DNA of 64,000 nt from Pseudomonadota bacterium. GTDB lineage: Bacteria; Desulfobacterota; Binatia; Binatales; Binataceae. Location of the stretch: positions 354,923 through 418,922 of the forward strand of contig JAJPKA010000002.1 of assembly GCA_021323945.1 (NCBI GenBank), written 5' to 3'. The position numbers and the translations under genes were made by a program. Every line of letters starts with the position of its first letter. The stretch's first letter is position 1. The notes beneath the pieces were generated by a model. It was not told the origin of the DNA, did no database searches, and was given only the letters and a program-made list of their open reading frames with translations. Below are positions 7,287-37,731 of this stretch, one piece after another.

Positions 7287-9755
7287 CTAGTTGCCAGCAG
7301 CCGTCGCAGCCTGCGCGGCGGGCGCTGGCCGCAGGTAACGGGTCACAAAGGCTGGCTTCCGCCAGGCAATGTATGCAGGCAGAATCACTACGCCTGCGAT
7401 CATATTGGTCGCCATCAGGAAGATTAACAGCACGCTCATCTCATTGTGGAACAGCAAGGGAGAAAACGCCCAAGGTAAAATTCCGCCGACCATCACAGCG
7501 AAAGTGCTAAACACCGCCGCGCCGGTGGTCCGCAGAGAGGTTGTGATTGAATCCTCGATGTTGGCGCCGCCTGCAACCTCATCCCGAATCCGTGCCACGG
7601 TGTAAATGCCGTAATCAACGCCGAGACCGATACCCAGAGAGATCACCGGTATGGTGTCGATGGTAAGACCAATACCGCGTGCGTTCATGTAGACGAATGC
7701 GCCGAAATTAGCCATTACGCACGACACAATAAAGAGCGCGCCCGCAGTCAACGAGCGGAAAGTAAAAGCGCAGCAGACAAAGATGACGAGCAATACGAAA
7801 GTAATGTTGATGAAGTCGAGTTGCTTCAGGACATCATTTGCTGCCAGAAACAGTCCGGCTTCACCTCCCAGATAGCGCATTTTGACCTGACGGAGCCGTG
7901 GGTCGGGACTAATGCGACGTTCGATAAACGTTCGAATATCGTCCCGGAGACGGTTGAGTCGGGAGTAAGTGTGGTCTGGGAGCAACAATCTAATGCAGGA
8001 GCTGTTGACGTGCGGACTGTGAGCGAAAAATCGTTCCATTTCGCCTGGAGCAGTTCCGCCCAGATACATAAACCATAGATTGCCCCCGAGCTCGATGCCC
8101 ACCGAGGTTCTTTGAAACTTTGACTGCTCGAACCCGGTTGGAATCGCGATAAACTTCGGATATCCATTGTGGAACATCGAATTAAGCGGCTTGATTACCG
8201 ACGCGAAGGAGACGGTTGCCAGGACATCGCCTCGGCTCACTAAATAGGCTCCCAGATCATCGGACATCCTGAGCACCTCGGGCCCGAGCCCTGATTCGGG
8301 GTCCGGATAGTCAGGGGTACTTAGCACCACCCATCCTTCATCGGTCGGGAAGAACCTGCCGATTTCAGCCGTATCAAGATTCACTTTCGCGTCAGGGCGA
8401 TACAGGGGAGTGCCTGGCGTTTCATACCCAACGTGCGCTCGCTGACCGGAGATCGCTCCCCAAACGATAAATAGTGCGCCCGCCAGCAGTAGCGCGCTGC
8501 GGGCGAATCCAGGCGTAACCGGCAGGCCAATCAGCCAATCAGTCAACCAGCGAAACCGGCTCTTGCGCTGGCGGCGCAGCGATGTGAGCCAGCTGTCCCG
8601 AATCCGTGGTCGCGGAAGGAAGCTCATAAAGATCGGCTGAAAGACGAAGACCATGGTGAGGCTTGACGCCAACCATACAGCGCCGCCGAGCCCAATCTCC
8701 TTGAGGACCGGAATTCCACCGAAAGAGATGAAGATAATGCCGGCGATATCCGCGAGAATCGACAACAGTCCCGGCGGCAGCATTACATCGGTGGTCGTCG
8801 CACAGGCCAGGATCTTGTCGTCCAGTCGGTCGAGTTCGTCGTAATAGCGCCCCTGCCATTGGATTCCATGGCTAAGGTCGCGGGCGGTGAGAATGAAGGG
8901 GATGACCAGCATTACGGGGTCGAAGTTGTAGCCCATCAGGCTCACGAACCCGAGACCCCATAAGGCCGAGAACGAGCCGGTTACGATCGGTGCCCACCAA
9001 CTGCTGCGATGACCGAGGCTTAAATAAAGAATGATGATCATCAACGAGAGCGACGTGAAAAAAATCGCGCTGATCCGGGGGAGGTAGTAATAGCCCCAAC
9101 CCGAAATAACCGGCTGACCCGAAACATAGATCTCGGTGTTCTGGTCCGAGTACCGCTCAACAATCTTCTGGATCTTGTCGAACAGATCACGATAGTCGAG
9201 CGCACCCTCGTTAAAGCTCGCTGTGATTAGGGCGCCTTTGTTGTCGGCGGTTACCAGCCCGGCTACCGGCTCGCGATGAGCAAAGACATTGTGCCTGAGT
9301 TCATCGAGCTGCTGTTGATTTTGCGGCACCTTCGGGTACATGTAGCAGCGCGTGATAATCGCGCCGGGCACCGCACTGGCGAAGGTCACGCGGTAGGAGG
9401 CCAGTGAAAAGATCTCGTTGTGATCCACCCCGGGCAGGATATTAACTGCCCGGGTGATGTCTTCGATCTTCTGCAGTGTGGAATAGTTGAAAATATCTCC
9501 ACGCTTCACCCGCAGCATCACCGCCAGCGTCTGAGCACCGCCGTAGTGGGTATGGTATTGGCGATACAGGAGCGTGTTGGGGTGATTGCTGGGAAAGAAA
9601 TTCTCGAACCGAGTCGCAATTCTCACGTGCACCGCCCAGTACGCCATGAATATCGTTACCGCGATCAGAAGGAATCCGATTGGCACGCGGAACTGGAGGA
9701 TGCTTCGGCCAATGCCGAGCTCGTTTCTTAGGCCGAGTGAGTTCATCTGCACCAC
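7287..9755 (-). CDS. MMPL/RND-superfamily membrane transporter (12 TM, two large periplasmic loops), possibly HpnN-like
   Basis: 822 aa. TM1 + loop + TM2-6, then TM7 + loop + TM8-12 topology. About 55-60% identical over long stretches to the ORF at 39789-42311. Confidence 0.8.
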   Translation of the reverse strand: MVQMNSLGLRNELGIGRSILQFRVPIGFLLIAVTIFMAYWAVHVRIATRFENFFPSNHPNTLLYRQYHTHYGGAQTLAVMLRVKRGDIFNYSTLQKIEDITRAVNILPGVDHNEIFSLASYRVTFASAVPGAIITRCYMYPKVPQNQQQLDELRHNVFAHREPVAGLVTADNKGALITASFNEGALDYRDLFDKIQKIVERYSDQNTEIYVSGQPVISGWGYYYLPRISAIFFTSLSLMIIILYLSLGHRSSWWAPIVTGSFSALWGLGFVSLMGYNFDPVMLVIPFILTARDLSHGIQWQGRYYDELDRLDDKILACATTTDVMLPPGLLSILADIAGIIFISFGGIPVLKEIGLGGAVWLASSLTMVFVFQPIFMSFLPRPRIRDSWLTSLRRQRKSRFRWLTDWLIGLPVTPGFARSALLLAGALFIVWGAISGQRAHVGYETPGTPLYRPDAKVNLDTAEIGRFFPTDEGWVVLSTPDYPDPESGLGPEVLRMSDDLGAYLVSRGDVLATVSFASVIKPLNSMFHNGYPKFIAIPTGFEQSKFQRTSVGIELGGNLWFMYLGGTAPGEMERFFAHSPHVNSSCIRLLLPDHTYSRLNRLRDDIRTFIERRISPDPRLRQVKMRYLGGEAGLFLAANDVLKQLDFINITFVLLVIFVCCAFTFRSLTAGALFIVSCVMANFGAFVYMNARGIGLTIDTIPVISLGIGLGVDYGIYTVARIRDEVAGGANIEDSITTSLRTTGAAVFSTFAVMVGGILPWAFSPLLFHNEMSVLLIFLMATNMIAGVVILPAYIAWRKPAFVTRYLRPAPAAQAATAAGN

Positions 9756-9963: not shown

Positions 9964-11655
9964 CTAGCAGCTGCCAGAGCGTAGAACTTCGCCGTGTAGC
10001 TGCTCGTTGGTCCGACCGCGATCGTACAGCCACCGGCCATTGACAAAAACGTATTCAATGCCGCGCGCGGGCATTACGAGACGCCGCCCGCCTCCCGGCA
10101 GGTCGTTGCGCATCTCGCCACGCTTGTCGGAGCCAACGGTGTTGTAATCAAAAATCACGATATCAGCGGCCATTCCAGGCAACAACCGGCCGCGAGTCCG
10201 GATTCCAAAGAAGTCAGCTGGCTCGGAAGTGATACGTTTGATGGCATATTCGAGGGGCATCGCCTGGCGCTCGCGCACCCAGGTGCCCAGCAGATAGGTA
10301 CAATACCCCGCATCGCAAAGCATATCGACATGAGCGCCACCGTCGCTCAAACCGACCATTGTGCGTGGGTCTGTGATTAACTCCGGAATCCGATCCTCGT
10401 CGGCATTGAAGAGTGCCATTGTGAACTCGATGCCGAGATCGTCCTCGAGTCCGAGGTCGAGAAAGGCGTCGACGCCATCACATCCACGCTCACGCGCTAT
10501 ATCGGCGACGCTACGGCCGACCAAGCTCCGCAGACCAGGGGTCTTCACCTCCTTGATTTCCAGCCGCTCCCATTTGCCGTTGAATACGGCGGGCCGCTTT
10601 AGCGCTTCACGAAACTCGTTGCGAAAGTTGGTATCACGGTATATCGCTTTCTGGACTTCAGGCGGCTGATTGAAAACCGGGTTCCAGCTGCTCAGATTGG
10701 CAAAGATGAAGGGGTCGCGGAGATTAATTTGTACGGTTAATGGACGGCACGTTACTTGGGGAATACCGCCGCGCCGAATCAACGGTTCGGCTTTGCGCAG
10801 GGTCTCTTGGCATGCTTCAGGCATATCGTCGCGGTTAAGCAATGCCAGCCACGTGACCGGCCGGTTGCTCTCTCGAAGCAGCAGGTCGAGAAATTCATAC
10901 TCCTCGTCAGCCATCAGGGCCACGGACTTGGTCAGCGCCAGCTCGATTGTCCCCCGCCCGAGTTCTCTGAGCGCTCCACAATAGGCTTTGAATTCGTCAC
11001 GGCTGGCATTGCGACAGGCGATGGGCCTGCCTTTGTACCCGATATGTTGAGGCACCGCCGTGGTGGAGAAGCCAAAGGCTCCCGCCGCGACTGCATCCCT
11101 AATCAACGCAGCGATTTCGGCCGTCTCCTTGGGATTTGCCGCCCGTTCCATCGACTCCTCGCCCATCACGTAGTGCCGAAACGGCGTCAGGGCCGCCATG
11201 AAGCCCAGATTAATCGCGCAGCCGCGCCGTTGGGCGGCGTCGAGATATTGCGGAAAGGTTTCCCAGTCCCAGGTCACTCCCTTGCCCAAAACCTCGAACG
11301 GGATAGCCTCGACGTTGACCAGGTCCCAGGCCGCGATCTCGTGAACATCGGGTCTGCAGGGCGCGATACCTACGCCACAGTTGCCCATTATGACTGTAGT
11401 GACGCCGTGCCAGGACGAAGAAGTTATATAGGGATCCCAGCAAATCTGCGCGTCGTAGTGCGTGTGGGGGTCGATGAAGCCGGGGGCGACGATCAGATCA
11501 GAGGCATCAACAATTTGCTTGGCTGGCTCCGAGACTTTGCCAATTTCGACAATTTTGCCATCCCCAACCGCTACGTCCGCTCGGCGCGGCGAGGTACCGG
11601 TTCCGTCGACTACAGTTCCGTTTTTAATCAAAAGATCGTACGCCATTACCCACAT
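9964..11655 (-). CDS. N-acyl-D-amino-acid deacylase (D-aminoacylase) family amidohydrolase
   Basis: 563 aa. N-terminus LLIKNGTVVDGTG...IVAPGFIDPHTHYDAQICWDP with metal-binding HxH. Classic D-aminoacylase architecture. Confidence 0.85.
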   Translation of the reverse strand: MWVMAYDLLIKNGTVVDGTGTSPRRADVAVGDGKIVEIGKVSEPAKQIVDASDLIVAPGFIDPHTHYDAQICWDPYITSSSWHGVTTVIMGNCGVGIAPCRPDVHEIAAWDLVNVEAIPFEVLGKGVTWDWETFPQYLDAAQRRGCAINLGFMAALTPFRHYVMGEESMERAANPKETAEIAALIRDAVAAGAFGFSTTAVPQHIGYKGRPIACRNASRDEFKAYCGALRELGRGTIELALTKSVALMADEEYEFLDLLLRESNRPVTWLALLNRDDMPEACQETLRKAEPLIRRGGIPQVTCRPLTVQINLRDPFIFANLSSWNPVFNQPPEVQKAIYRDTNFRNEFREALKRPAVFNGKWERLEIKEVKTPGLRSLVGRSVADIARERGCDGVDAFLDLGLEDDLGIEFTMALFNADEDRIPELITDPRTMVGLSDGGAHVDMLCDAGYCTYLLGTWVRERQAMPLEYAIKRITSEPADFFGIRTRGRLLPGMAADIVIFDYNTVGSDKRGEMRNDLPGGGRRLVMPARGIEYVFVNGRWLYDRGRTNEQLHGEVLRSGSC

Positions 11656-14950: not shown

Positions 14951-16540
14951 ATGGCTGCGCCAGCCGGTGCATTACATCTCGAAGCACATCGGTCATCACA
15001 CAAGTGGCTTATTGCACTAGCCGTGATGTTGGGGACGACCCTGGAAGTCCTGGACAATTCGATCATCAACGTTGCTCTTCCTCATTTGCAGGGCTCTTTT
15101 TCTGCCGGGGTCGACGAGATCACCTGGGTCGTGACCAGCTACCTGGTGGCGAATGGGATCATGATTCCGATGACCGGTTGGATCTCCTCCCATTTTGGTC
15201 GCAAGCGCTACTTTCTCACCTCGGTAATGGTGTTCGTTCTCGCCTCCGCCGCCTGCGGTGCAGCTCAATCGCTGGCTGAGATCGTCATATTCCGGCTGGT
15301 TCAAGGGGCGGCCGGCGCGGCAATGATCCCATCGTCGCAGGCCATCTTGATGGAGACGTTCCCGCCTGAGGAGCAGCAGCTCGCGATGGCTTTGTGGGGA
15401 GTCGGCCTGATGGTGGCGCCAATCGCTGGTCCCACTTTGGGGGGCTGGATCACTGATAACTGGAGCTGGCGCTGGAACTTTTATATCAACGTTCCGATCG
15501 GTGCGCTTGCATTCGTGATGGTGTCAGCTTTTGTTCATGATCCAGCGTTTATGAGAGAACGGCGAGCACGCGGAGGCCGGGTTGATTACCTCGGCATTGT
15601 TTTGCTGGCCTTAAGTCTGGGGCTCCTGCAAATCGTGCTGGATCGCGGGCAGCGGGCCGATTGGTTCAACGCCCCATGGGTGGTGTACGCAACCAGCTGT
15701 TCGGTTACCGCCTTTCTGCTTCTCATCCTGCGCGAGTTACGTTTCAGTGAACCGATCCTCGATCTTCGCATCTTCAAAGAGCCGGTTTTTATTGTGGCTA
15801 CCACTCTTACCGTCTCGATGAGTTTTGTCCTGTTTGGTGTCATCTTGATGACCCCCCTCTTCTTGCAGGAGCTAATGGGCTATAGCGCCTGGCGCGCCGG
15901 ACTTGTCCTGGCTCCGCAGGGTTTCGGCGCGATGTTCTCGATGATGCTAACTGGGCAACTGGCGCGTGCCGGAGTTAACACGCGGCCAATGGTGGGGCTC
16001 GGCTTTGCGCTGGCCTCGCTGGGTGCTTGGCTGACCTCTGGGTGGGACCTTCAAATTAATGCGTGGACGGTGATCTGGAACCGAACAGTAATGTCACTGG
16101 GCTTCGGTATGATATTCCCCAATACTTCGGCGGCTGCGCTGTCGTGTGTTCCACCCCAGCGAATCGGCTACGCTTCAAGCCTCTTCAACATGCTGCGCAA
16201 TACTGGAGCCGCAATTGGGATCGCCTTCATGACCAACACCCTGCTCAGCCGCCAGCAAGTACATCAATCACGGCTGGTCGAGCATTTCTCGGTCTTTGAT
16301 GCTTGGCGATTACACGAGGTGGGCCAGCGTTTACCGAATTCACCAGTCTTCAGCTATCTGCCGCAGATGCCGGCTGCCCACCAGCAACTCGGGATACTTT
16401 ATGGGGCGGTGCAGGCTCAGTCGGCGATGCTTTCCTTCAATGACATTTACTGGGTGATTGCGATCGGAGTGATTCCCCTCATCCCGCTTTGCGTGCTGCT
16501 TCCCAGTTCGAAACATGCAGCTACGGCTGCGGCTCATTGA
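14951..16540 (+). CDS. MFS transporter, DHA2 (EmrB/QacA) family, 14 TMS
   Basis: 529 aa. Typical DHA2 N-terminus (LEVLDNSIINVALPHLQGSFSAG). 14 hydrophobic segments. Precise start uncertain. Confidence 0.85.
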   Translation: MAAPAGALHLEAHRSSHKWLIALAVMLGTTLEVLDNSIINVALPHLQGSFSAGVDEITWVVTSYLVANGIMIPMTGWISSHFGRKRYFLTSVMVFVLASAACGAAQSLAEIVIFRLVQGAAGAAMIPSSQAILMETFPPEEQQLAMALWGVGLMVAPIAGPTLGGWITDNWSWRWNFYINVPIGALAFVMVSAFVHDPAFMRERRARGGRVDYLGIVLLALSLGLLQIVLDRGQRADWFNAPWVVYATSCSVTAFLLLILRELRFSEPILDLRIFKEPVFIVATTLTVSMSFVLFGVILMTPLFLQELMGYSAWRAGLVLAPQGFGAMFSMMLTGQLARAGVNTRPMVGLGFALASLGAWLTSGWDLQINAWTVIWNRTVMSLGFGMIFPNTSAAALSCVPPQRIGYASSLFNMLRNTGAAIGIAFMTNTLLSRQQVHQSRLVEHFSVFDAWRLHEVGQRLPNSPVFSYLPQMPAAHQQLGILYGAVQAQSAMLSFNDIYWVIAIGVIPLIPLCVLLPSSKHAATAAAH

Positions 16541-16621
16541 CGGTTAAGCAGTTGCGGTTGCCGTACCAGCCAAAACATGGAAACGTGCAGGATCGCTCGA
16601 TTTCAATGACAGGAGCACCGA

Positions 16622-17341
16622 ATGAAAACCGAGACAATTGAATATCGCGACGGCGACGTAACCCTCAAAGGATTTCTGGCCTACGATGAGCGTCAATCGG
16701 GCAAACGACCGGGGATTCTGGTGATGCCAGAAGCGTTCGGGCTGGGTACCCACGCCAAGCAGCGCGCCCAGCGCCTGGTCGAACTCGGCTATGTGGCGTT
16801 TGCCGGTGATCCCTATGGCAACGGAGTCGAGGCAAAGGACCTGCAGGAAGCAATGAAATTGGCTGGTCCTCTAACGCAGGATCCGACGAAATTTCGCCAA
16901 CGCGGACGAGCCGCACTCGACAGGCTGGCTGCATTTGACCAGGTTGACGCGACGCGCCTTGGTGCCATTGGCTTCTGTATGGGGGGTACCTTTGGCCTTG
17001 AACTGGCACGGGACGGTGCACCCCTCAAGGGCGTAGCCACCTTTCACGCTGGCCTGCAGACCCAGCGCCCAGCCGTAGAAGGTCAGGTCAAAGCCAGTAT
17101 TCTGGTTTTGACCGGGGCCGACGATCCCTTCGTGCCTGCCGATCAGGTGGTCAAGTTTCAGGAAGAAATGACCAAGGCGAAGGTCGATTGGCAAGTTATC
17201 AGCTATAGTGGCACCGTTCATAGTTTCACGAATCCTGATGCGGCAAGCGTCGGCAATCCAGGTCTTGCTTACAACAAGCGAACCGACGAACGCTCGTGGA
17301 GAGCGATGGCGTCCTTCTTCGAAGAAATCTTCCGCGCGTGA
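16622..17341 (+). CDS. Dienelactone hydrolase family protein
   Basis: 239 aa. Nucleophile motif GFCMGG. DLH-like alpha/beta fold. Confidence 0.85.
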   Translation: MKTETIEYRDGDVTLKGFLAYDERQSGKRPGILVMPEAFGLGTHAKQRAQRLVELGYVAFAGDPYGNGVEAKDLQEAMKLAGPLTQDPTKFRQRGRAALDRLAAFDQVDATRLGAIGFCMGGTFGLELARDGAPLKGVATFHAGLQTQRPAVEGQVKASILVLTGADDPFVPADQVVKFQEEMTKAKVDWQVISYSGTVHSFTNPDAASVGNPGLAYNKRTDERSWRAMASFFEEIFRA

Positions 17342-17367
17342 GGGTTTTCCGCGACGTTCGCAGTCCC

Positions 17368-17403
17368 GGGCCTTGATTTCGTTATTGCTGAGAATCAAGG
17401 CCC
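17368..17403 (+). terminator. Perfect 11-bp stem hairpin (GGGCCTTGATT / AATCAAGGCCC, 14-nt loop) 27 bp after the DLH stop
   Basis: Read directly from the sequence. No U-tract follows, so it may be a U-tract-less intrinsic terminator or an RNA processing/regulatory element ahead of hpnJ. Confidence 0.4.
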
Positions 17404-17487
17404 AACTCGCCCGCAGCTCAATTCCACAAGGCGTTTCTTGAACCGACAAATAGCGGTTTGTATAGTGGGCACTAACCTCTCGGACAG

Positions 17488-18960
17488 GTGGGGAAGCTGT
17501 TGCGCATGGATGCGATGAAAACCTTGTTCCTGAACCCTCCTTCCTATGACGATTTCGATGGAGGGGCCGGGTCACGTTACCAGGCGACGCGCGAAGTCTG
17601 GTCGTTCTGGTATCCTACCTGGTTGGCCTACCCAGCAGGTTTGGTGCCCCAAGCCCGCTTGCTCGATGCTCCGCCGCACGGCTACACGCCCGAGCAAACA
17701 GTGGCTGAAGCCAAAAACTATGAATTTGTGGTCGTTCACACTTCTACGCCGTCGCTGAAAAGAGACATACGGACGGCGGAAGCCATCAAAGCGGCCAACC
17801 CGGATTGCATCATCGCCTTCGTCGGTGGCCATCCCACTGCGCGTCCCGAGGAGACTTTGCAGCTGTCCGAGGCAATCGATATCGCCGCCCGCAAAGAATT
17901 TGACTATTCCATGGCCGAGGTGGCGTTCGGCAAGGAATGGAAAACTATCGGTGGCATCAGCTACCGGCGCAACGGCACGATCCATCACAATCCCGACCGT
18001 CCGGTCTTGACCAATGAAGAGCTGGATCGATTGCCATTTGTGACGGAGGTCTACGAAAAGAATCTCGACTATCTCAAGTACAATAGTCCTTACTGCCAGT
18101 ATCCATATGTGTCGATGTACACCGGGCGCGGCTGTCCGGCACGATGCACCTTTTGCCTGTGGCCCCAGGTGACCCAGGGCCACCGCTATCGCGTGCGCAG
18201 TCCGGAGAATGTATACGAGGAAGTCGCCGCGATGAGAGCGAAGTTCCCCAAAATGAAGGAGCTCTTCTTCGACGACGACACCTTTACTGCCGATCCGGCG
18301 CGAGCACGGAAGATTGCTCAATTATTGAAACCACTCGGCATTACCTGGTCGACCAACTCGCGCGCCAATGTCGACTACGAGACCCTCAAGGTGATGAAGG
18401 AAGGCGGGCTTAGGCTGTTGGTCGTCGGCTATGAAAGCGGCAATGCGGAAATTCTCAAAAACATCAAAAAAGGAGTCAGGCTCGAGCGTGCGCGCCGCTT
18501 TACTCGCGACTGCCACGAGCTCGGCATCCTGATCCACGGGACCTTTATTCTGGGTCTCCCCGGGGAAACTCGCGAAACTATCGAAGAATCAATGCGTTTC
18601 GCCCAGGAGATGGATTGCGAAACTATTCAGGTTTCGCTCGCCTCGCCATATCCTGGCACCGAGTTGTTTGAGTACGTTACGAATCACGGTTACCTGGCTG
18701 TCGACCCACTGCTCGACGAGGCGGGCTATCAGAAGTGTACCGTGCAGTATCCCCACCTGAGCGCCGATGAAATTTACCGTTCGGTCGAACGCTTCTATCG
18801 CAGTTTTTATTTTCGTCCGCGCTATATCTTCAAATCGGTACGTAAAATGCTCTCCTCATCTGAAGAATGTAAAAGGTTGCTCAAGGAGGGGATGCAGTTC
18901 CTGTCTACAATGCGGCAACGGCGGGTCCAACTTCAGCGTCCCACTATGACCCAGGCCTGA
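17488..18960 (+). CDS. hpnJ: Hopanoid biosynthesis-associated B12-binding radical SAM protein HpnJ
   Basis: 490 aa. N-terminal MKTLFLNPPSYDDFDGGAGSRYQATREVWSFWYPTWLA matches the conserved HpnJ opening as I recall it. CxxxCxxC (CPARCTFC) radical SAM core. True start probably an internal Met at 17506 or 17515. Confidence 0.7.
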   Translation: MGKLLRMDAMKTLFLNPPSYDDFDGGAGSRYQATREVWSFWYPTWLAYPAGLVPQARLLDAPPHGYTPEQTVAEAKNYEFVVVHTSTPSLKRDIRTAEAIKAANPDCIIAFVGGHPTARPEETLQLSEAIDIAARKEFDYSMAEVAFGKEWKTIGGISYRRNGTIHHNPDRPVLTNEELDRLPFVTEVYEKNLDYLKYNSPYCQYPYVSMYTGRGCPARCTFCLWPQVTQGHRYRVRSPENVYEEVAAMRAKFPKMKELFFDDDTFTADPARARKIAQLLKPLGITWSTNSRANVDYETLKVMKEGGLRLLVVGYESGNAEILKNIKKGVRLERARRFTRDCHELGILIHGTFILGLPGETRETIEESMRFAQEMDCETIQVSLASPYPGTELFEYVTNHGYLAVDPLLDEAGYQKCTVQYPHLSADEIYRSVERFYRSFYFRPRYIFKSVRKMLSSSEECKRLLKEGMQFLSTMRQRRVQLQRPTMTQA

Positions 18961-19036
18961 TTGCTGATCACCACAGGAAAACACGCTCGAGGATGCTGCT
19001 TATTGCCGCAACTATTACGACGTTCAGCGTTGCGCA

Positions 19037-20260
19037 GTGAATCTCATTGTCGGCTTTGCTGCTGCGTGTTGTGCGCTTTCGGTTGCCTACTACCTGCTTA
19101 GCACGGCAATTGGCTTGCGCTTCGCCCGCCGGGCGGCACAGCTACCAGGATCTTCGCCAAAGATTGCGCCTCGGCTTGCGGTGCTGAAGCCGCTGCACGG
19201 CTCTGACGATTATCTAGCTGACAACCTGGTCAGCTACCTGGAGGTGGACTACTCAAAGGTGGATTTTGTTTTCGGCGTATCCGATTACGAAGACCCGGCC
19301 GCCTCGGTAGTGGTTGCACTTAAACCCCGATATCCGTTCAGACACATAACTTTAAATATCGGTGAGCGACCCAACTGCGCCAATCGCAAAGTAGCCAAGC
19401 TCATCGAAATGGCGCAACGGGTTCCCCGTGCGGAAATTCTGGTCCTAAGCGATGCCGATGTTGCAGTCGAACGCGATCATCTGTGGCGGCTGGTGAATGA
19501 ACTCGAGGCTGACCCTGAGCTAGGGCTGGTTACCTGCCTTTACCGAGCGAAGGCCGGTGGTGGGATGGTCTCGCGTCTTGCCGCGCTCTTCGTAAATACC
19601 GATTTCGTGCCGCTGATCATGATCTCGAAGACGATTGAGCCTATGCGGTACGCAATGGGCGCAACGATAGCGATCAGGCGCGAAGCGCTGGCCTCAATTG
19701 GCGGCTTCACGCGGGTCAAGGACCTGCTGGCGGATGACTACTATCTGGGTAAATTCGCCAGCGACCAAGGCTACAAAATCGGGCTGTCCAGTTCGATTGT
19801 GACGGTCAGGACCGACGAGCCTGATTTTACTGCGTTTTGGAACCATCAATTGCGGTGGATGCGCACCTATCGCAACACGCGCCCCATTAGCGTGGCGACT
19901 ATTGTCCTGCATGGTCCCTTCTGGGCCTCGATGCTTCTACTGCTGACGAACTGCAGTAAACTCGCGCTAACCGTTTTTGCTGCTGTTGTCGCTGTCCGCA
20001 TACTCACCGCGCGTTTGCAGATAAGCCAGGTTCTCGGACTGCCGGAGCAGCGCAATGACTCCTGGTTAACTCCGGTTAAGGATTTGGTTATGACCGCGGC
20101 ATGGGTGGCCAGTCTGTTGAGTAACAAGGTGCTGTGGGCGGGGCGACGGCTGCGGGTCAGATCCGATGGCACGATGGAGGAAATCGTGAGCTCGCCGGTG
20201 GTAGGCTGGCCGGGCCCGTCGCGAACTGCCGCAATTGACCAGCGTCATAGCGGCGACTGA
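19037..20260 (+). CDS. hpnI: GT2 glycosyltransferase, ceramide-glucosyltransferase-like; probable HpnI (bacteriohopanetetrol N-acetylglucosaminyltransferase)
   Basis: 407 aa. N-terminal TM, LKPLHGSD, DAD motif (VLSDADV), QxxRW (QLRWMR). Sits 77 bp downstream of hpnJ. Confidence 0.6.
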   Translation: MNLIVGFAAACCALSVAYYLLSTAIGLRFARRAAQLPGSSPKIAPRLAVLKPLHGSDDYLADNLVSYLEVDYSKVDFVFGVSDYEDPAASVVVALKPRYPFRHITLNIGERPNCANRKVAKLIEMAQRVPRAEILVLSDADVAVERDHLWRLVNELEADPELGLVTCLYRAKAGGGMVSRLAALFVNTDFVPLIMISKTIEPMRYAMGATIAIRREALASIGGFTRVKDLLADDYYLGKFASDQGYKIGLSSSIVTVRTDEPDFTAFWNHQLRWMRTYRNTRPISVATIVLHGPFWASMLLLLTNCSKLALTVFAAVVAVRILTARLQISQVLGLPEQRNDSWLTPVKDLVMTAAWVASLLSNKVLWAGRRLRVRSDGTMEEIVSSPVVGWPGPSRTAAIDQRHSGD

Positions 20261-20326
20261 TCTTCCGTCGACCCCCCGCCGACTGCCTTCTTCGCTCCGG
20301 ATCGGCCGCAATCTTGTGGAGCGTAC

Positions 20327-21247
20327 GTGGGACTTCAATGCTACAACTGCCCTGAATCGCGTTTTGTTGGTGGTCTGCTGGTGGCTCTGATCGCCAGCAT
20401 CATGCTGGCAGCCGGCCTGGCGATTATGAAAGAACGCGCCCCAGCGCTGCCAGCGATTCGCGCGTCCTCACCCGTCAAAGCTCTTCTATGCTGGATCTGC
20501 GATTTGCCCTGGCTCGCAGCGCTGATCATCGAAGCCGCGGGTTATGCGCTATATTTCGTGGCTTTGGCACGCGCCCCAGTATCGCTGGTGGCCGTGGTGA
20601 TGCAGGGCGGTATTGCGGTGTTTGTGCTGATCGCGGTGGTTTTTCTCGGGGAGCGAGCCAACTACCTGGAGGCAAGCGGAATCGCCGCTATTATCCTGGC
20701 GATGGTTCTGCTGGCGCTGTCGTTTGATAATGTTCCGGTTCGTGGTCAACTTGATTCAGATACCCTGTGGATGGTTTCGGCGGTTACGCTGGCTGGCACG
20801 GTCGTCTTGTGGTCGGCGCGCCGATTGCGTTCGAACGGCTCAGCGGAGGCGATCGCATCGGGCATCGCTTTCGGCCTGAGTACGCTATACACCAAAGCGT
20901 TGGCCGATGTTCTCGCGACTCGGACCGACTACCCAGCGGCGCTTGCCTTGCTCGCCAGTCCCTGGCTGTACCTGACAATGATTGCCAACATCGGTGGTCT
21001 CGTGCTTTTACAAAATTCTTTTCATCACACCCGCGGACTGATCGCGATGCCTCTGTCGTCGGCAATATCCAATGTGGTACCCATAGCCGGCGGTATGCTG
21101 GCTTTCGGCGAACGTCTGCCGCAGGAGTCGCTGCCTGCGGCTTTTCGTTCCGCCGCATTCATCTTAACGATCGTGGGCAGTATGTTGCTGGCAGGTGCAG
21201 AAACTATCACTGACGACAGCCATCAAGTCCAGCGCCGTCGCCATTGA
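20327..21247 (+). CDS. Polytopic inner-membrane protein (DMT/EamA-like or HpnL-like), probably co-transcribed with hpnJI
   Basis: 306 aa, about 9-10 hydrophobic helices, 67 bp after hpnI. Family cannot be decided by eye. Confidence 0.5.
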   Translation: MGLQCYNCPESRFVGGLLVALIASIMLAAGLAIMKERAPALPAIRASSPVKALLCWICDLPWLAALIIEAAGYALYFVALARAPVSLVAVVMQGGIAVFVLIAVVFLGERANYLEASGIAAIILAMVLLALSFDNVPVRGQLDSDTLWMVSAVTLAGTVVLWSARRLRSNGSAEAIASGIAFGLSTLYTKALADVLATRTDYPAALALLASPWLYLTMIANIGGLVLLQNSFHHTRGLIAMPLSSAISNVVPIAGGMLAFGERLPQESLPAAFRSAAFILTIVGSMLLAGAETITDDSHQVQRRRH

Positions 21248-21310
21248 CGAACACGCGTCCGCACGACAGAGCTCAACCAGGCGACTATTGATACATCGGA
21301 TGGGGGTATC

Positions 21311-22321
21311 ATGAAGATTAAACGAATGGGACGTACCGGCCTCAAGGTCTCGGAGATCTGCCTCGGAACAATGACCTTCGGCTTACAATGCGACGAGCAA
21401 ACCAGCTTCGCTATCATGAACGCGGCATTGGAACACGGCGTAAATTTTATCGACACGGCCGACGGCTATCCGATGGGCGGCAATCTGGAGACCGTGGGAC
21501 GGACAGAAACCATTGTCGGTCAATGGCTTAAAGGCCGACGCGACAAAATTGTGCTTGCCACCAAGTGTTGGGTACCGATGAGTAGCGAGCCCAACGACCG
21601 CGGCCTTTCACGCAAACACATTTTTGACGCCGTAGAGGCCAGCCTGCGGCGACTCCAGACCGACTACATCGACCTCTATCAGGCTCATGCACCTGACCCG
21701 GAAACCCCGCTGGATGAAACGTTGCGCGCGTTCGATGACTTGGTCCACCAGGGCAAGGTCCGCTATCTTGGCTGCTCAAACTTCAAGGCGTGGCTGCTCG
21801 CAACGGCGCTTGCTATCAGCGATAAGCATGATTTGGCGCGGTTCGATTGCGTCCAACCCCGCTACAATCTGCTGTTTCGCGAAATCGAAAATGAATTGCT
21901 GCCCTTATGCCATCATTTCGGTATCGGTGTGATTGCCTATAACCCACTGGCAGGCGGCTTCCTAACCGGCAAATACAAACGCGACACTCCGCCGTCACGC
22001 GACACTCGCTTTGGATTTCTCTCGGGCCGAACCCGCTCGATTTACCACAAACGGTATTGGCAGGATGAGCAATTCGAGGCTGTTGAACACCTGCAGGACT
22101 TCTTCTCACGCCGCAATAAGTCCCTCACACAGGTGGCGATCGCGTGGGTTCTGGCACAACCCGACGTGACATCTGCCATAGTCGGAGCCACCTCTCCTGC
22201 CCAAATCCATCAATCCCTGCCGGCCGTAGAACTGAAGCTCGAGGCCGATGAAATGGAGGTTTGCAACGACGTCTGGTTCAGACTCCCTCGGCTCCGCGAT
22301 CCCGAGGTGGCGTTCCGCTGA
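21311..22321 (+). CDS. Aldo/keto reductase
   Basis: 336 aa. MGRTGLKVSEICLGTMTFG N-terminus, typical AKR. Confidence 0.85.
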   Translation: MKIKRMGRTGLKVSEICLGTMTFGLQCDEQTSFAIMNAALEHGVNFIDTADGYPMGGNLETVGRTETIVGQWLKGRRDKIVLATKCWVPMSSEPNDRGLSRKHIFDAVEASLRRLQTDYIDLYQAHAPDPETPLDETLRAFDDLVHQGKVRYLGCSNFKAWLLATALAISDKHDLARFDCVQPRYNLLFREIENELLPLCHHFGIGVIAYNPLAGGFLTGKYKRDTPPSRDTRFGFLSGRTRSIYHKRYWQDEQFEAVEHLQDFFSRRNKSLTQVAIAWVLAQPDVTSAIVGATSPAQIHQSLPAVELKLEADEMEVCNDVWFRLPRLRDPEVAFR

Positions 22322-25872: not shown

Positions 25873-26168
25873 CGTAGGGCGGCTATCAAGCTTAGAACAA
25901 CGCTGACCGGTGGCTCAACCTGGTTTTCCGCAAGCCGCATAACCCAGTGACGAAACAAGGCCAAGCCCGCCGGTGTTTGGCACGAGGCCAACACATTGTA
26001 GTATGCTTTAGGCGCAGAATGGCTTTTTTGGTCGTTGCCAGCAAATTTGGAACCGCACGTGACCGGATTTCAACTCAAGGTTGGCCCGTGGGTCGGGGCT
26101 GGATTGCCCACATAAGCTGCCAATTGAAAGACCGGTCGCGTTAGAGCGTCGTCGGAGGAAACCCGGTT

Positions 26169-27299
26169 ATGGCTTTCGAGTACAAGCGCATTGATGCCGA
26201 CAGTCATTGCCAGGAAAAACCGGATACCTGGACCAGCCGGATGTCGAAAACCAAATGGGGCGACCGCATCCCGCAGATTCGCGAGAAGGACGGACGCGAA
26301 TACTGGGTTTGCGATGGCAGAATAATGATGAACGGATGGCTCGCGCTGTGTCACGGGGTTATTCCGGATCGCAAAACCCTGCCGACCCATTGGCGCGACG
26401 TCCCATCGATGATCTATACGGCCGACGGTCGTATGCGCGCGATGGATCGCGACGGCGTTTCGGCCCAGGTGCTCTTTCCCAATACGGCGGGGGTTGGTGG
26501 CGAGGGCTTCATGATGAAAATGGACCCCGAGTTCCAAAAGGACTGTGTGCGGGCGTATAACGACTATTTGGCCGAAGAATTTTTCGACGTTGCCCCTCAC
26601 CGGTTCATCACCCTGGCGATACTGCCGCTTTCGAGCGTGGAGGCAGCGGTCGCCGAATTGAAGCGAGCCGCCAAGCGGGGCCATCGCGGTTTCCTCATGA
26701 TCAGCGCCACTGAGCAGTATCACCTGCCTGCCTTCGCCGACCATTATTGGGACCCACTCTGGGCAACTGCCCAGGAGCTCGATATGCCGGTGCATTTCCA
26801 CAATGTGGCTGGCGCCAAACGGCTTACCTTGGGCTCGGAACCCGGCTCGAGCGACATGAAGATGCTTGCGATGGCGAGCGCCAATTCTTTTGCGCTCTCT
26901 GCGCAGATCTTTGCCAATCTGCTGCTGAGCGGCGTGCTCGAACGATTCCCTAGGCTGACCTTTGTCGGCGCCGAGAGCGGGATCGGATGGGTGCCCTACG
27001 TGCTTGAAGCGTGCGATTACGAATGGGAGCGCAACCAGCTCTACAAAAACGGTCTCAAGCGCAAGCCGAGCGACGCCTTCCGCCAGCAATGCTACGTGGA
27101 TTTCTGGTACGAGCAGGCCGGGATTAAACTTCGTGACTACATCGGCATCGACCGGATCCTGTGGGAAACGGACTTCCCGCATCCGACCTCGATTTGGCCG
27201 GCCGCGGACAAGTGGCTCAAATGGAGCTTTGAAGGAGTTCCCGAAGAGGACCAGCATAAGATTCTGGTTGAAAATCCCAAACGGCTCTACAAGCTGTAG
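26169..27299 (+). CDS. Amidohydrolase-2 (PF04909-type) TIM-barrel metal-dependent hydrolase
   Basis: 376 aa. IDADSH metal-binding start and HFHN, typical of the ACMSD/Amidohydro_2 superfamily. Confidence 0.75.
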   Translation: MAFEYKRIDADSHCQEKPDTWTSRMSKTKWGDRIPQIREKDGREYWVCDGRIMMNGWLALCHGVIPDRKTLPTHWRDVPSMIYTADGRMRAMDRDGVSAQVLFPNTAGVGGEGFMMKMDPEFQKDCVRAYNDYLAEEFFDVAPHRFITLAILPLSSVEAAVAELKRAAKRGHRGFLMISATEQYHLPAFADHYWDPLWATAQELDMPVHFHNVAGAKRLTLGSEPGSSDMKMLAMASANSFALSAQIFANLLLSGVLERFPRLTFVGAESGIGWVPYVLEACDYEWERNQLYKNGLKRKPSDAFRQQCYVDFWYEQAGIKLRDYIGIDRILWETDFPHPTSIWPAADKWLKWSFEGVPEEDQHKILVENPKRLYKL

Positions 27300-27362
27300 C
27301 GGATAAAAAGTTACCGCTCGGTTTGACTCGCTGCTCTGCTCCAGGCCAGGAAGGACGATGCT

Positions 27363-28505
27363 GTGGCACTGCGATTTGGTGTGATCTCTGCTGACGACCA
27401 TGTGGTGGAACCGCCTGATCTGTGGACCAGTTGCCTGTCGCAGGCAAAATGGGGCGACCGCATTCCGCACGTGGCTGTGCAGTCGGACGCGACCGAGCGT
27501 TGGGTAATCGATGGCCAGGTCAGGCTGTCAACTTCGCTGGTCTCGACCGGGGCGTTATCCACAGACCGAGGTTCGGAGCCGCAGCACTGGAGTGAGGTGC
27601 CCAAGGCCGCGTACGACCCGGCGGCGCGGCTGGCCGCGATGGATTCAGACGGCGTCGATTGCTCGGTGCTATTCCCGTCAGCCGCGGGCGTGAGCGGCGA
27701 GGCGATTGGCGCAATCAAAGACCTCGAGCTTCAAGTCCAATGCGCGCGTGTCTATAACGACTGGATTATTGACGTTTGGGGCGCATCCAGTCCGCGTTTC
27801 GTGCCCCAGGCCATCCTCCCCGCAGGATCGGTTGAGGCGGCGGTGGCGGAAGCCATGCGCGCGGTGGGCCGGGGCCATAAGGGATTAATCATGCCCGCGC
27901 AGCCCTCGCAAATAAATCCAGCCGTACCTCATCTCTACAAGCCTGACTGGGATCCGCTATGGAAGACAATCGAGGAACTCGGGGTCCCCGTATGCTTCCA
28001 CGCGGGCAGCGCTCCCAGCGTTATGTTCGAGATAAGCCCGGCCTACGACTCAGCCGGGGCCCGCGCATTCGACAACGTCCGCCAGTCGGCCGGCAGTGCA
28101 GCATTGATCAATGGGATGGTGCTGTCGGGAATTCTGTACCGGTTTTCGCGACTGCAGGTTGTCTTTCCGGGTAGTGCGATTGATTATGTGCCGTTTGCGC
28201 TCGAAGCACTGGACCATCAGTGGGAACGTCAGCGTCTGGCGGAGAACGAAGGCTTCCTGCAGCGGCCCTCTGAGATTTTTCATCGACAGTGTTACGTGAC
28301 GACGTGGAAAGAAAGGGTCGGACTGCGCAATCGCAACTATGTCGGTGTGGAGCGCATCCTCTGGCAATCGGAGTTTCCCCGCTCGACGTCGACCTACCCC
28401 GAAACCACGCGCATGATCGCCAACAACTTCGCTGACGTACCTGCTCAGGAGCGCGACCTGATCCTCTGGCGCAACGCCGCTCGACTTTACCAGCTGTCAA
28501 CCTGA
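27363..28505 (+). CDS. Amidohydrolase-2 family hydrolase (tandem paralog)
   Basis: 380 aa, collinear similarity to the preceding gene (ISADDHVVEPPDLWTS...KWGDRIPHV...DSDGVDCSVLFPS...). Confidence 0.75.
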   Translation: MALRFGVISADDHVVEPPDLWTSCLSQAKWGDRIPHVAVQSDATERWVIDGQVRLSTSLVSTGALSTDRGSEPQHWSEVPKAAYDPAARLAAMDSDGVDCSVLFPSAAGVSGEAIGAIKDLELQVQCARVYNDWIIDVWGASSPRFVPQAILPAGSVEAAVAEAMRAVGRGHKGLIMPAQPSQINPAVPHLYKPDWDPLWKTIEELGVPVCFHAGSAPSVMFEISPAYDSAGARAFDNVRQSAGSAALINGMVLSGILYRFSRLQVVFPGSAIDYVPFALEALDHQWERQRLAENEGFLQRPSEIFHRQCYVTTWKERVGLRNRNYVGVERILWQSEFPRSTSTYPETTRMIANNFADVPAQERDLILWRNAARLYQLST

Positions 28506-35781: not shown

Positions 35782-36603
35782 CTACAATTCCTGGTGCCTG
35801 AGATATGTCAGCGGCGGCGGCGATGCCCTGAATTCTTCGTACACCTTGTTGTAACCGTCGAGATCGTCGACAGTTCGGAAGAAGGCTTCGTGCACATAGC
35901 CAAAAACCGGCATCCCTTTCGAGACCATGGGGGCGACCAGGTCGACAATTAAGCCAAAAGGTGCGGCTGCCGGCGTATGATCAAACACTGCTGGCTCACA
36001 GATCATCGCCCCGCAATACATCAACGGTCTTAAGTTGACGCCAGGGTGGGCGGGAACTGCTGCTGGATAATCTTGATAACTGCCAGATAAGCGGTCAGTC
36101 AGCAGACGAATCCGTCGCACTCGCCCTTCATTGTCGATCTCGATCTGGCTGTATGCATCCGATTTGGCTGGATCACGCAGCACCATTGTTATGATTGCGT
36201 TCCGTCGCCGATGGGACGCGATCATGGCGGGCAAATCGAGGTCCATGATGGTATCACTGTTTAGGATCAGAAATGACTCGCTGCCGAAGTAACCGCGCAA
36301 GCGAAGCAGAGGGCCGCCCGTACCCTGCAGAATCGCCTCGGGCAAATAGGTTATCTCGACACCCAGCTTGGCGCCGGAGCCGAGAGCTGCGGTGATTTTG
36401 GCCGCAAGATGATGCACGTTGATCGCTATCTCGCGGATTCCCGCCTCTCGTAGCAGCAGCAGCGGATAATGGATTAGCGGGTGGCCACCGATTTCGAGCA
36501 ACGGTTTCGGTATCGCGTTGGTTAACGGCCGCAGACGCTCGCCGTAACCTGCCGCCAGTACCAATGCCTTCATGCTTGTTCGATTCCGGCTGTTGCGGTT
36601 CAC
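35782..36603 (-). CDS. murU: Sugar-1-phosphate nucleotidyltransferase (MurU-like N-acetylmuramate-1-P uridylyltransferase)
   Basis: NTP-transferase N-terminus MKALVLAAGYGERLRPLTNAIPKPLLEIGG. Immediately downstream of a phosphotransferase-fold kinase. Confidence 0.7.
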   Translation of the reverse strand: MNRNSRNRTSMKALVLAAGYGERLRPLTNAIPKPLLEIGGHPLIHYPLLLLREAGIREIAINVHHLAAKITAALGSGAKLGVEITYLPEAILQGTGGPLLRLRGYFGSESFLILNSDTIMDLDLPAMIASHRRRNAIITMVLRDPAKSDAYSQIEIDNEGRVRRIRLLTDRLSGSYQDYPAAVPAHPGVNLRPLMYCGAMICEPAVFDHTPAAAPFGLIVDLVAPMVSKGMPVFGYVHEAFFRTVDDLDGYNKVYEEFRASPPPLTYLRHQEL

Positions 36604-36624
36604 CCGGAGATTGGCGGCTGGCTT

Positions 36625-37731
36625 TCAAAGTTGAGAAGTTCGTTCGAACTCATCGATGACTTCGCGCAGTATGGGAAACTCCGGTGTAAGCATTCGCTTG
36701 GCTTGTTGCAGTGCGGATGGAATGTAATTGAGGTATTCACGTTTGCCTTGATGCGCCAGGGAGGTGAAACGGCCGATGATCTTGAGCGCGTGTTGCAGCA
36801 CGCAATAGCGGTAGCTTGTAAGGAAGTCCGCGTAGCTGAGTTTGCTCGCCCCTCGCCTCAGCAAAGTCGCGTGGTAGTAATCGAGCAGCCGGCGCTCGAG
36901 TCTCGGCGTAATCACGCGTCCAGTATCGCGCGTGGTCAGCAACACGGCGAGATCCTGTGCCGCAGGCGCCAGGAGCGCATCCTGGAAATCGATGACTCGA
37001 ATCCGAAGACTCCCGCCATCGCGCTGAATGAAGAGATTGTGGCCGTGATAGTCACGATGAGAAAAGACGCGTGGAAAGGCATCCAACCGAGCCGCGAGTT
37101 CATCAAGTTCTTCAGTGAGTCCCTGGTAATTGGCCGCCGCTGTGATTGCGCCTAATCCACTCTTAACGAATTCCTGCAGCTCCCAGCGGAACAGTCGCCG
37201 ATCATAAGCGATTTCACTCGCTAGACAATTGCTATTGAGCTGCTCAGTCCCGCGGATATGGAAAATCAACAGTTCGTCTACAGCTAGCCGGTAAAGATCG
37301 CCGGCGTTGGCCGTCTGGGCGGCTTCGAATAATGGAAGCTGGCCGACATCTTCGACCAGCAGCATGCGGGCGTCTGTATCCGCAACGTAGATCTCAGGCA
37401 CCGCGACGCCGATTTTCTGGAGAAAGGCGTGGACATTGAGCCATGGCGGATTAGGTAATGGCTCGCGCAGTAACCCGAGGGCGCGAACGTACGACGGAAC
37501 ATCATCCGGTCCGAGGTCGACCGCGATCGCGGAAGGGGGCCGAGCGCCGTCCGGGTTGAGCCTTATTCGCCAAAAGCGCCTGCTCGAAGCATCACCTTTA
37601 AGTGGCTCTAGCCCGAGCAGCGCGCCTTGTCCCCAGAGGCGGTCAACGGCGGTGGAAATCCAGGCATGCGGCTCCGTTCGGTCCATCAAGCGTTGCGATT
37701 TCGCCGATCTCAAGTCAGGGCTGGTATGCAT
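36625..37731 (-). CDS. amgK: Phosphotransferase (APH/CHK-fold) family kinase, AmgK-like anomeric MurNAc/GlcNAc kinase
   Basis: Brenner motif HRDYHGHNL and Mg-binding IDFQDA. Operonic with the nucleotidyltransferase, 21-bp gap. Confidence 0.65.
   Translation of the reverse strand: MHTSPDLRSAKSQRLMDRTEPHAWISTAVDRLWGQGALLGLEPLKGDASSRRFWRIRLNPDGARPPSAIAVDLGPDDVPSYVRALGLLREPLPNPPWLNVHAFLQKIGVAVPEIYVADTDARMLLVEDVGQLPLFEAAQTANAGDLYRLAVDELLIFHIRGTEQLNSNCLASEIAYDRRLFRWELQEFVKSGLGAITAAANYQGLTEELDELAARLDAFPRVFSHRDYHGHNLFIQRDGGSLRIRVIDFQDALLAPAAQDLAVLLTTRDTGRVITPRLERRLLDYYHATLLRRGASKLSYADFLTSYRYCVLQHALKIIGRFTSLAHQGKREYLNYIPSALQQAKRMLTPEFPILREVIDEFERTSQL

Follow-up and report, generated by a model that had tools for sequence, protein, structure and literature searches.

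The 64-kb window analysed here is the whole 64,000-nucleotide stretch of contig JAJPKA010000002.1, from a soil bacterium of the family Binataceae (phylum Binatota), and all positions are counted from its first letter. At 17488-21247 it carries three genes on the same strand that probably form a unit for the late decoration of extended hopanoids. By profile match the first two are hpnJ and hpnI, while the third encodes a membrane protein with a predicted DMT-superfamily fold. The three open reading frames (ORFs) are:

17488-18960, + strand: ORF1, hpnJ; TIGR03471 profile match, B12-binding and Radical_SAM domains
19037-20260, + strand: ORF2, hpnI; TIGR03472 profile match, GT2/GT21 glycosyltransferase
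20327-21247, + strand: ORF3, DMT-superfamily membrane protein gene by predicted fold; conserved partner of hpnJ/hpnI

An initial annotation, made from the letters of the sequence, had proposed three genes at these positions, and all three are real. They are co-directional, with intergenic gaps of 76 bp (ORF1-ORF2) and 66 bp (ORF2-ORF3), and hpnJ-hpnI-DMT is probably an operon.

Against the HpnJ equivalog model TIGR03471, ORF1 scores 726.3 bits (cutoff 577.6, E = 1.7e-218), and the alignment spans profile positions 1-471 of 472. Pfam places a B12-binding domain (PF02310) at the N-terminus, together with a Radical_SAM domain (PF04055), and there is a single CxxxCxxC motif, CPARCTFC, at residue 207 when counting from a start at 17515. 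The protein also gives a full-length match to the HpnJ of Paraburkholderia, at 54% identity. The rival models stay far below their own cutoffs, with 107.3 bits for BchE (cutoff 481) and 60.5 bits for HpnR (cutoff 650); HpnJ is the top model by more than 580 bits, and the best match is not an enzyme of the BchE/HpnP type.

Judged by these profile and domain matches ORF1 is HpnJ, the radical SAM enzyme with a B12-binding domain that belongs to the cyclitol-ether step of the hopanoid pathway, as the initial annotation had read it. Translation probably starts at one of two ATG codons, at 17506 or at 17515, and not at the GTG at 17488, because the profile match opens at residue 10 and the public gene calls are 484 or 481 amino acids long.

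A genome survey of the Binatota (PMC8262859) describes bchE homologues as ubiquitous, in a bacteriochlorophyll pathway that is incomplete, and its supplements mention neither hopanoids nor squalene nor bchE. Part of these bchE calls, which are of a KEGG-type annotation, may be hpnJ, because the HpnJ of the window scores 107 bits on the BchE model, far under its cutoff, and 726 on HpnJ.

ORF2 passes the HpnI equivalog model TIGR03472 marginally (323.2 bits, cutoff 310, E = 1.8e-96) and reaches only 43.5 bits on the paralogous HpnB model. Its Pfam family is GT21 (Glyco_transf_21), and the identity to annotated HpnI proteins is 33-41%. Two of the motifs named in the initial annotation are found, LKPLHGSD (KPLHG at residue 51) and DAD (at 139), while a literal QxxRW is not: the third motif reads HQLRW, at 270, and the annotated reference HpnI proteins show the same H/RxxRW variant. 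From profile and motifs we read ORF2 as HpnI, the membrane-anchored GT2/GT21 glycosyltransferase of bacteriohopanetetrol glucosamine biosynthesis, which agrees with the earlier assignment to a GT2 enzyme of this type.

Two hpnI paralogs are present on the Paraburkholderia graminis plasmid pPHS1_P (L085, 20001-28703). The first lies in the order hpnJ-hpnI-LPG synthase (HpnL-type) and has the motifs KPLHG and HELRW, and the second belongs to a nearby hpnI-hpnK pair and has KPLCG and RETRW. The HpnI of the window has the motif variants of the first copy and is overall slightly closer to the second.

We scanned for HpnJ with one genome per prokaryotic species. The scan gave 80 loci, mostly labelled Candidatus Binataceae or Binatus; the rest carry delta-proteobacterium, proteobacterium or Thermodesulfobacteriota labels of metagenome-assembled genomes. 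Gene order was counted in the 70 Binataceae species loci with enough sequence 3' of hpnJ. In 69 of these hpnI is the next gene after hpnJ, and 61 have the DMT gene after hpnI. Among the nine loci without the DMT gene one also lacks hpnI, and another has only 2.5 kb of downstream sequence. The genes flanking hpnJ-hpnI-DMT vary, and those of the window differ on both sides. Since the three genes are kept together while the flanks vary, hpnJ, hpnI and the DMT gene travel together.

The order of hpnJ before hpnI, which the initial annotation regarded as inverted, is therefore the fixed order in Binataceae, and it also occurs on the P. graminis plasmid; it is not remarkable in itself. In Mycetohabitans the order is hpnI-hpnJ-hpnK-LPG synthase. 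The constraint on the three proteins is very uneven: across Binataceae the identity is 84-90% for HpnJ, 46-57% for HpnI and 43-63% for the DMT protein. The high value for HpnJ indicates that this protein is under strong constraint.

In most Binataceae (L004, L013, L018, L046, L075 and about 45 others) two same-strand genes lie directly 5' of hpnJ. The first encodes an ArnT-like GT-C glycosyltransferase of ~588 amino acids with PMT_2 and Arnt_C domains (207 bits on ArnT, below the cutoff), the second a 336-residue "flippase-like" LPG_synthase_TM protein (TIGR00374, 76.6 bits), and a gamma-glutamyltransferase gene is often found farther 5'. No homolog of the ArnT-like or the flippase-like gene was found in the window, and the pair was for this reason rejected as part of the unit. 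The LPG_synthase_TM protein is not HpnL either, with 20.5 bits against a cutoff of 195.65. A single Binataceae locus (L036, 6057-11443) keeps hpnJ and both genes of this pair, yet has neither hpnI nor the DMT gene downstream; this could be gene loss, rearrangement or mis-assembly.

The product of ORF3 has 306 residues and is a polytopic membrane protein with about 9-10 transmembrane helices, in agreement with the initial annotation. A search found 344 homologs, and public soil metagenome contigs, up to 874 kb long, carry one that is 100% identical. Given these homologs and a confident AlphaFold model (from 40 homologs, mean pLDDT 90.1, about 9-10 long helices) ORF3 is a real gene. The further suggestion that it is HpnL-like does not hold: ORF3 matches no NCBIfam model, HpnL (TIGR03476) included, and its fold is of the DMT/SMR type and not the LPG_synthase_TM fold of HpnL.

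In Pfam all scores are below threshold, with 25.4 against 26.2 for NIPA (PF05653), 16.9 against 28.2 for EamA (PF00892) and 19.5 against 30.1 for TMEM234; a sister protein reaches 30.9 on the DMT_1 model, where the threshold is 50. The structural neighbours of the model are the solute transporters Gdx, LicB, TPT and SLC35, and a Foldseek search of the model against the PDB returned nothing informative. In the predicted structure two helical, SMR-like halves make up a fold of the DMT superfamily. The subfamily is a small one, with only 175 members at E<=1e-10 and 10 at E<=1e-30 in a set of 1.84 billion representative proteins.

The next tier of DMT homologs is ~35% identical to ORF3 and includes one protein that NCBI labels Candidatus Binatia bacterium. 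On three deeply divergent Binatia contigs (L090-L092) the homolog lies ~80 bp 3' of a B12 radical SAM gene, on the same strand, and is convergent to a YdjC gene and an LPG_synthase_TM gene. The NCBIfam assignments of these neighbours are:

B12 radical SAM protein, L090-L092: HpnJ, 760 bits, cutoff 577.6
YdjC protein, L090-L092: HpnK, 329 bits, cutoff 233
LPG_synthase_TM protein, L090-L092: HpnL-like, 161 bits, below the cutoff of 196
upstream glycosyltransferase, one of the three contigs: HpnB, 414 bits, cutoff 379

In these other Binatia the DMT homolog is thus embedded among hpnJ, hpnK and an HpnL-like gene. No hpnI is found within 10 kb, and one locus has HpnB instead. The HpnJ proteins of the two groups are far apart: the identity between Binataceae and other Binatia is 52-53%, between Binataceae and Burkholderia 54%, and between other Binatia and Burkholderia 58-60%. 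Since DMT homologs adjoin hpnJ in two Binatia lineages, the DMT subfamily sits inside hopanoid-associated clusters. The gene is specific to the Binatia lineage and tied to its hopanoid cluster; the proteobacterial hpnL/I/J/K loci contain no DMT homolog. Still more distant DMT relatives are found in unrelated contexts, away from hopanoid genes.

On the same three contigs a conserved co-directional gene set adjoins hpnJ-DMT-hpnK-hpnL-like (L090 11736-18689, L091 11769-18607, L092 11732-18703). It consists of a CDP-alcohol phosphatidyltransferase with weak similarity to inositol-phosphate synthases, an iolG-like dehydrogenase of the GFO/IDH/MocA type, a class III aminotransferase, a 269-residue protein of unknown function, a sugar-phosphate nucleotidyltransferase and a HAD phosphatase. 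By its predicted enzymes it resembles a pathway leading to a polar head group of the amino-cyclitol or inositol type.

ArnE/ArnF is an SMR-like DMT-superfamily flippase of undecaprenyl-phosphate-aminoarabinose, made of two four-helix subunits, and for the transport of polar-headed hopanoids we know of no established protein. By analogy, ORF3 may tentatively be considered a candidate flippase or exporter of an aminosugar or cyclitol hopanoid. A survey of 62,143 genomes (10.1101/2025.07.29.667474) names hpnL, hpnM, hpnS and hpnT as transport candidates, with no DMT protein among them.

The protein could instead be an unrelated small-molecule or Mg2+ transporter of the NIPA/EamA type, co-transcribed by chance and without any hopanoid role. 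Such an origin agrees with NIPA, an Mg2+ transporter, being the best and barely sub-threshold Pfam model, with structural neighbours that carry solutes, with the absence of the gene 3' of hpnI in some loci and with the distant relatives in other contexts. It agrees less well with an hpnJ-DMT adjacency that is kept in two Binatia lineages in which HpnJ is only 52% identical and the other neighbours differ. Further, the subfamily has few members, and all examined members of its two closest tiers adjoin hpnJ. On balance we find a chance association doubtful.

The remaining genes of the hopanoid pathway were searched for in the window and around it. Pfam or NCBIfam models, run on all window ORFs of at least 200 amino acids, detect no YdjC deacetylase, squalene-hopene cyclase (SHC), HpnH-type radical SAM protein, HpnG nucleosidase or squalene synthase. 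In the relatives, absence was counted over 84 Binataceae loci with 10 kb around hpnJ, which is ~20 kb per genome. A six-frame tblastn search with five HpnK queries (Paraburkholderia, Mycetohabitans and three Binatia; E<=1e-3) gave no match in the window or in these loci, while the same queries detect HpnK in control loci. The earlier observation that the window is without hpnK is thereby borne out.

Similarly, the SHC of Alicyclobacillus acidocaldarius (checked against PDB 1GSZ) and the HpnC/D/E/G/H and SHC proteins of a canonical cluster (L095) gave no match in the window or the 84 loci, and these queries find their targets in control loci. The canonical cluster, hpnCDE-ispH-hpnH-hpnG-shc, has 67% GC, unlike the 57% GC of the window, and was for this reason used solely for reference queries. 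Beyond the right end of the window, 10 kb of sequence contain only purine and housekeeping genes. When 5.8 billion proteins were searched for SHC, the 120 matches listed came from Alicyclobacillus, Bipolaricaulota, Chloroflexota and Streptomyces, and none of those listed is named Binatia. As the core genes are lacking locally, hopanoid core synthesis in Binataceae is assumed here and not shown.

We also considered local hydrolases as substitutes for HpnK. The amidohydrolases, an alpha/beta hydrolase and a dienelactone hydrolase were rejected, as they belong to generic families only and none is conserved beside the cluster in most relatives. One of them, an Amidohydro_3 metallohydrolase at 9964-11655 on the - strand, lies ~6 kb 5' of hpnJ and matches only generic amidohydrolase families. 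A copy that is 78-80% identical follows the DMT gene directly in L003, L005, L009 and L039 (at about 13.8-15.5 kb). In most genomes the gene is not conserved beside the cluster, and it was therefore not retained as the deacetylase.

The pathway of the hpnI-hpnJ-hpnK(-hpnL) module for bacteriohopanetetrol (BHT) cyclitol ether is reportedly that of Schmerk et al. 2015. For Burkholderia cenocepacia two papers (PMC12583986, PMC13459092) summarise the canonical order: HpnI adds N-acetylglucosamine (GlcNAc) to BHT, HpnK deacetylates it, and HpnJ contracts the ring to the cyclitol ether. According to the same papers, deletion of hpnK stops cyclitol ether formation.

From these genetics we infer, by analogy, the substrates and the order of the reactions in Binataceae. 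HpnI would move GlcNAc from UDP-GlcNAc onto BHT at the cytoplasmic face of the membrane. A deacetylase encoded elsewhere, either an hpnK at another locus or a non-orthologous enzyme, would then free the amine, and the B12-dependent radical SAM enzyme HpnJ would form the cyclitol ether by contracting the glucosamine ring. Finally, the DMT protein might carry either this bulky product with its polar head or the glucosamine precursor through the inner membrane, in analogy with ArnE/ArnF. We likewise infer hopanoid core synthesis in this genome.

Several observations weigh against a unit for late hopanoid decoration. None of shc, hpnC/D/E, hpnH, hpnG, hpnK and hpnN is found in the window or in the next 10 kb to its right, and neither a hopanoid core gene nor hpnK lies within 10 kb of hpnJ in the 84 Binataceae loci. 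The score of HpnI exceeds its cutoff by just 13 bits, 9 of the 70 loci lack the DMT gene 3' of hpnI, and the possible flippase role of the DMT protein is drawn by analogy. In B. cenocepacia the hpnK step is needed before HpnJ acts (PMC12583986, PMC13459092), and Acidobacteria with the same genotype are predicted to be unable to make the cyclitol ether (PMC5462960). Further, the 62,143-genome survey has no Binatales, and among its five Binatia genomes SHC is present in one and HpnH in none (10.1101/2025.07.29.667474).

A rival reading is that the module works without HpnK and that its product is different or truncated, and not the canonical BHT cyclitol ether. In this case the donor of HpnI might be UDP-glucosamine or some other aminosugar, HpnJ might act on the sugar while it is still N-acetylated, or a glycosylated hopanoid might already be the end product. 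The queries that miss hpnK in the window and the 84 loci find it in other Binatia and in Proteobacteria. The HpnI of Binataceae is divergent, both from the references and within the family, and barely above the cutoff, and the HpnJ of Binataceae is as far from that of other Binatia as from that of Burkholderia. Subdivision 1 and 3 Acidobacteria have hpnI and hpnJ without hpnK genome-wide, from which an inability to form the cyclitol ether was inferred by the authors (PMC5462960). With this genotype already described, the lack of hpnK beside the two genes is not novel in itself.

However, ~20 kb per genome were covered and hpnK may sit elsewhere, as hopanoid genes are often split over several clusters (PMC5462960). 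The very strong conservation of HpnJ fits an unchanged reaction, and the deletion of hpnK in B. cenocepacia blocks the cyclitol ether (PMC12583986, PMC13459092). We consider a module independent of HpnK quite unlikely. The combined claim, that the DMT protein is a flippase or exporter dedicated to hopanoids decorated with an aminosugar or cyclitol and that BHT glucosamine or cyclitol ether arises in Binataceae with no HpnK of the YdjC type, is unlikely.

It is very unlikely that the acceptor is not a hopanoid at all, with Binataceae lacking SHC and the unit serving a glycolipid or aminocyclitol-lipid pathway descended from hopanoid enzymes: none of the 84 loci has a hopanoid core gene near the cluster, our literature search found no paper linking Binatota or Binatia with hopanoids, four of the five Binatia genomes of the survey are without SHC and all five without HpnH, and the hpnJ-DMT-hpnK cluster of other Binatia abuts CDP-alcohol phosphatidyltransferase, inositol-dehydrogenase-like and aminotransferase genes, but HpnJ and HpnI both pass hopanoid-specific equivalog cutoffs, the related Binatia clusters hold the hopanoid-associated HpnB, HpnK and HpnL-like proteins, and in the survey (10.1101/2025.07.29.667474) HpnG, HpnI and HpnJ domains occur only in genomes with SHC and HpnH, and one Binatia order carries SHC.

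Upstream of the unit, and elsewhere in the window, we noted the following features:

17362..17407, + strand: stem-loop between the upstream dienelactone-hydrolase gene and hpnJ
17438..17466, + strand: sigma-70-like promoter candidate TTGAAC-17-TATAGT, ~40-50 bp 5' of the hpnJ start
7287-9755, - strand: MMPL/RND gene, HAE3-type
39789-42311, + strand: MMPL/RND gene, HAE3-type, paralogous to the first

The stem-loop has a core 11-bp stem (GGGCCUUGAUU / AAUCAAGGCCC), a minimum free energy of -28.7 kcal/mol (z = -2.4 against shuffles) and no T-tract; it probably ends the transcript of the dienelactone-hydrolase gene. The promoter candidate matches the consensus at 9 of 12 positions, and as the region gives 2 sites where 3.3 are expected by chance it is weak evidence, not significant alone. 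A search of 16500-21400 against Rfam found no riboswitch or other RNA.

The two MMPL/RND proteins had been suggested to be HpnN-like exporters. They score 22.3 and 19.2 bits on HpnN (TIGR03480), where the cutoff is 751.85, and their best family is HAE3 (TIGR00921, 111 and 116 bits), so this suggestion is not upheld. A gene for a DUF1329/LolA-like lipoprotein (45170-46519, - strand) lies ~3 kb from the second MMPL gene, and by family the MMPL pair and the lipoprotein gene suggest the export of a hydrophobic compound, unrelated to HpnN. At 35782-37731 on the - strand a MurU-like nucleotidyltransferase and an AmgK-like kinase are adjacent, both below their equivalog cutoffs, and this pair suggests a route for peptidoglycan amino-sugar recycling. 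An ORF of 466 amino acids at 26070-27470 (- strand), the longest there, has no family match and is probably spurious, because public gene calls place tandem Amidohydro_2 paralogs at 26169-27299 and 27363-28505, both on the + strand.

In soils and sediments, bacterial sources are traced by the side-chain chemistry of hopanoids, and genes of the glucosamine/cyclitol-ether branch are now placed in Binataceae, a family without cultured members that is reported to be common in peat and forest soils of acidic type (PMC8262859). Two modest points are new: hpnJ has a conserved DMT partner that is specific to the lineage, and this branch of the pathway is placed in Binatota. After the Acidobacteria this is a second lineage that keeps hpnI and hpnJ without a neighbouring hpnK, which sharpens the question of whether HpnK is indispensable. 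In addition, ORF3 is a concrete, small candidate for a transporter of polar-headed hopanoids. If the proposed roles are true, the DMT protein would be a new component of hopanoid trafficking, and Binataceae, which prefer the acidic soils of wetlands and forests, would be a so far overlooked origin of composite hopanoids in such soils.

Compared with known systems, the unit most resembles the hpnI-J-K(-L) module of Burkholderiaceae and Alphaproteobacteria. HpnJ is 54% and HpnI 33-41% identical, the KPLxG, DxD and H/RxxRW motifs are the same, the genes adjoin each other on one strand, the last of them encodes an integral membrane protein, and hpnJ before hpnI is also seen in P. graminis. The differences are that the window has no adjoining hpnK and that the trailing protein has a DMT fold and is not HpnL. 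In Methylobacterium, shc and hpnH are found within ~10 kb of the module, whereas the cluster of the window is without them nearby. With the Acidobacteria it shares the presence of the glycosyltransferase and the radical SAM enzyme and the absence of a YdjC deacetylase; there the absence is for whole genomes, here for the window and ~20 kb per related genome, and a DMT partner is not known to be reported for the Acidobacteria.

For the membrane protein alone, NIPA (PF05653) and EamA (PF00892) are the best profile matches, with similar length and helix count; ORF3 is below their gathering thresholds, so a substrate cannot be taken over from them. With ArnE/ArnF it would share a DMT/SMR-type fold and a place next to enzymes that assemble a lipid-linked aminosugar on the cytoplasmic side. 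The likeness is a functional analogy for the flipping of a cationic sugar-lipid, as ORF3 is one chain of about 9-10 helices and the lipid carrier is another one. The cluster of the other Binatia differs in having hpnK and an HpnL-like gene and no hpnI within 10 kb; in common with the window it has a member of the same DMT subfamily, at 35% identity, directly 3' of HpnJ and on the same strand.

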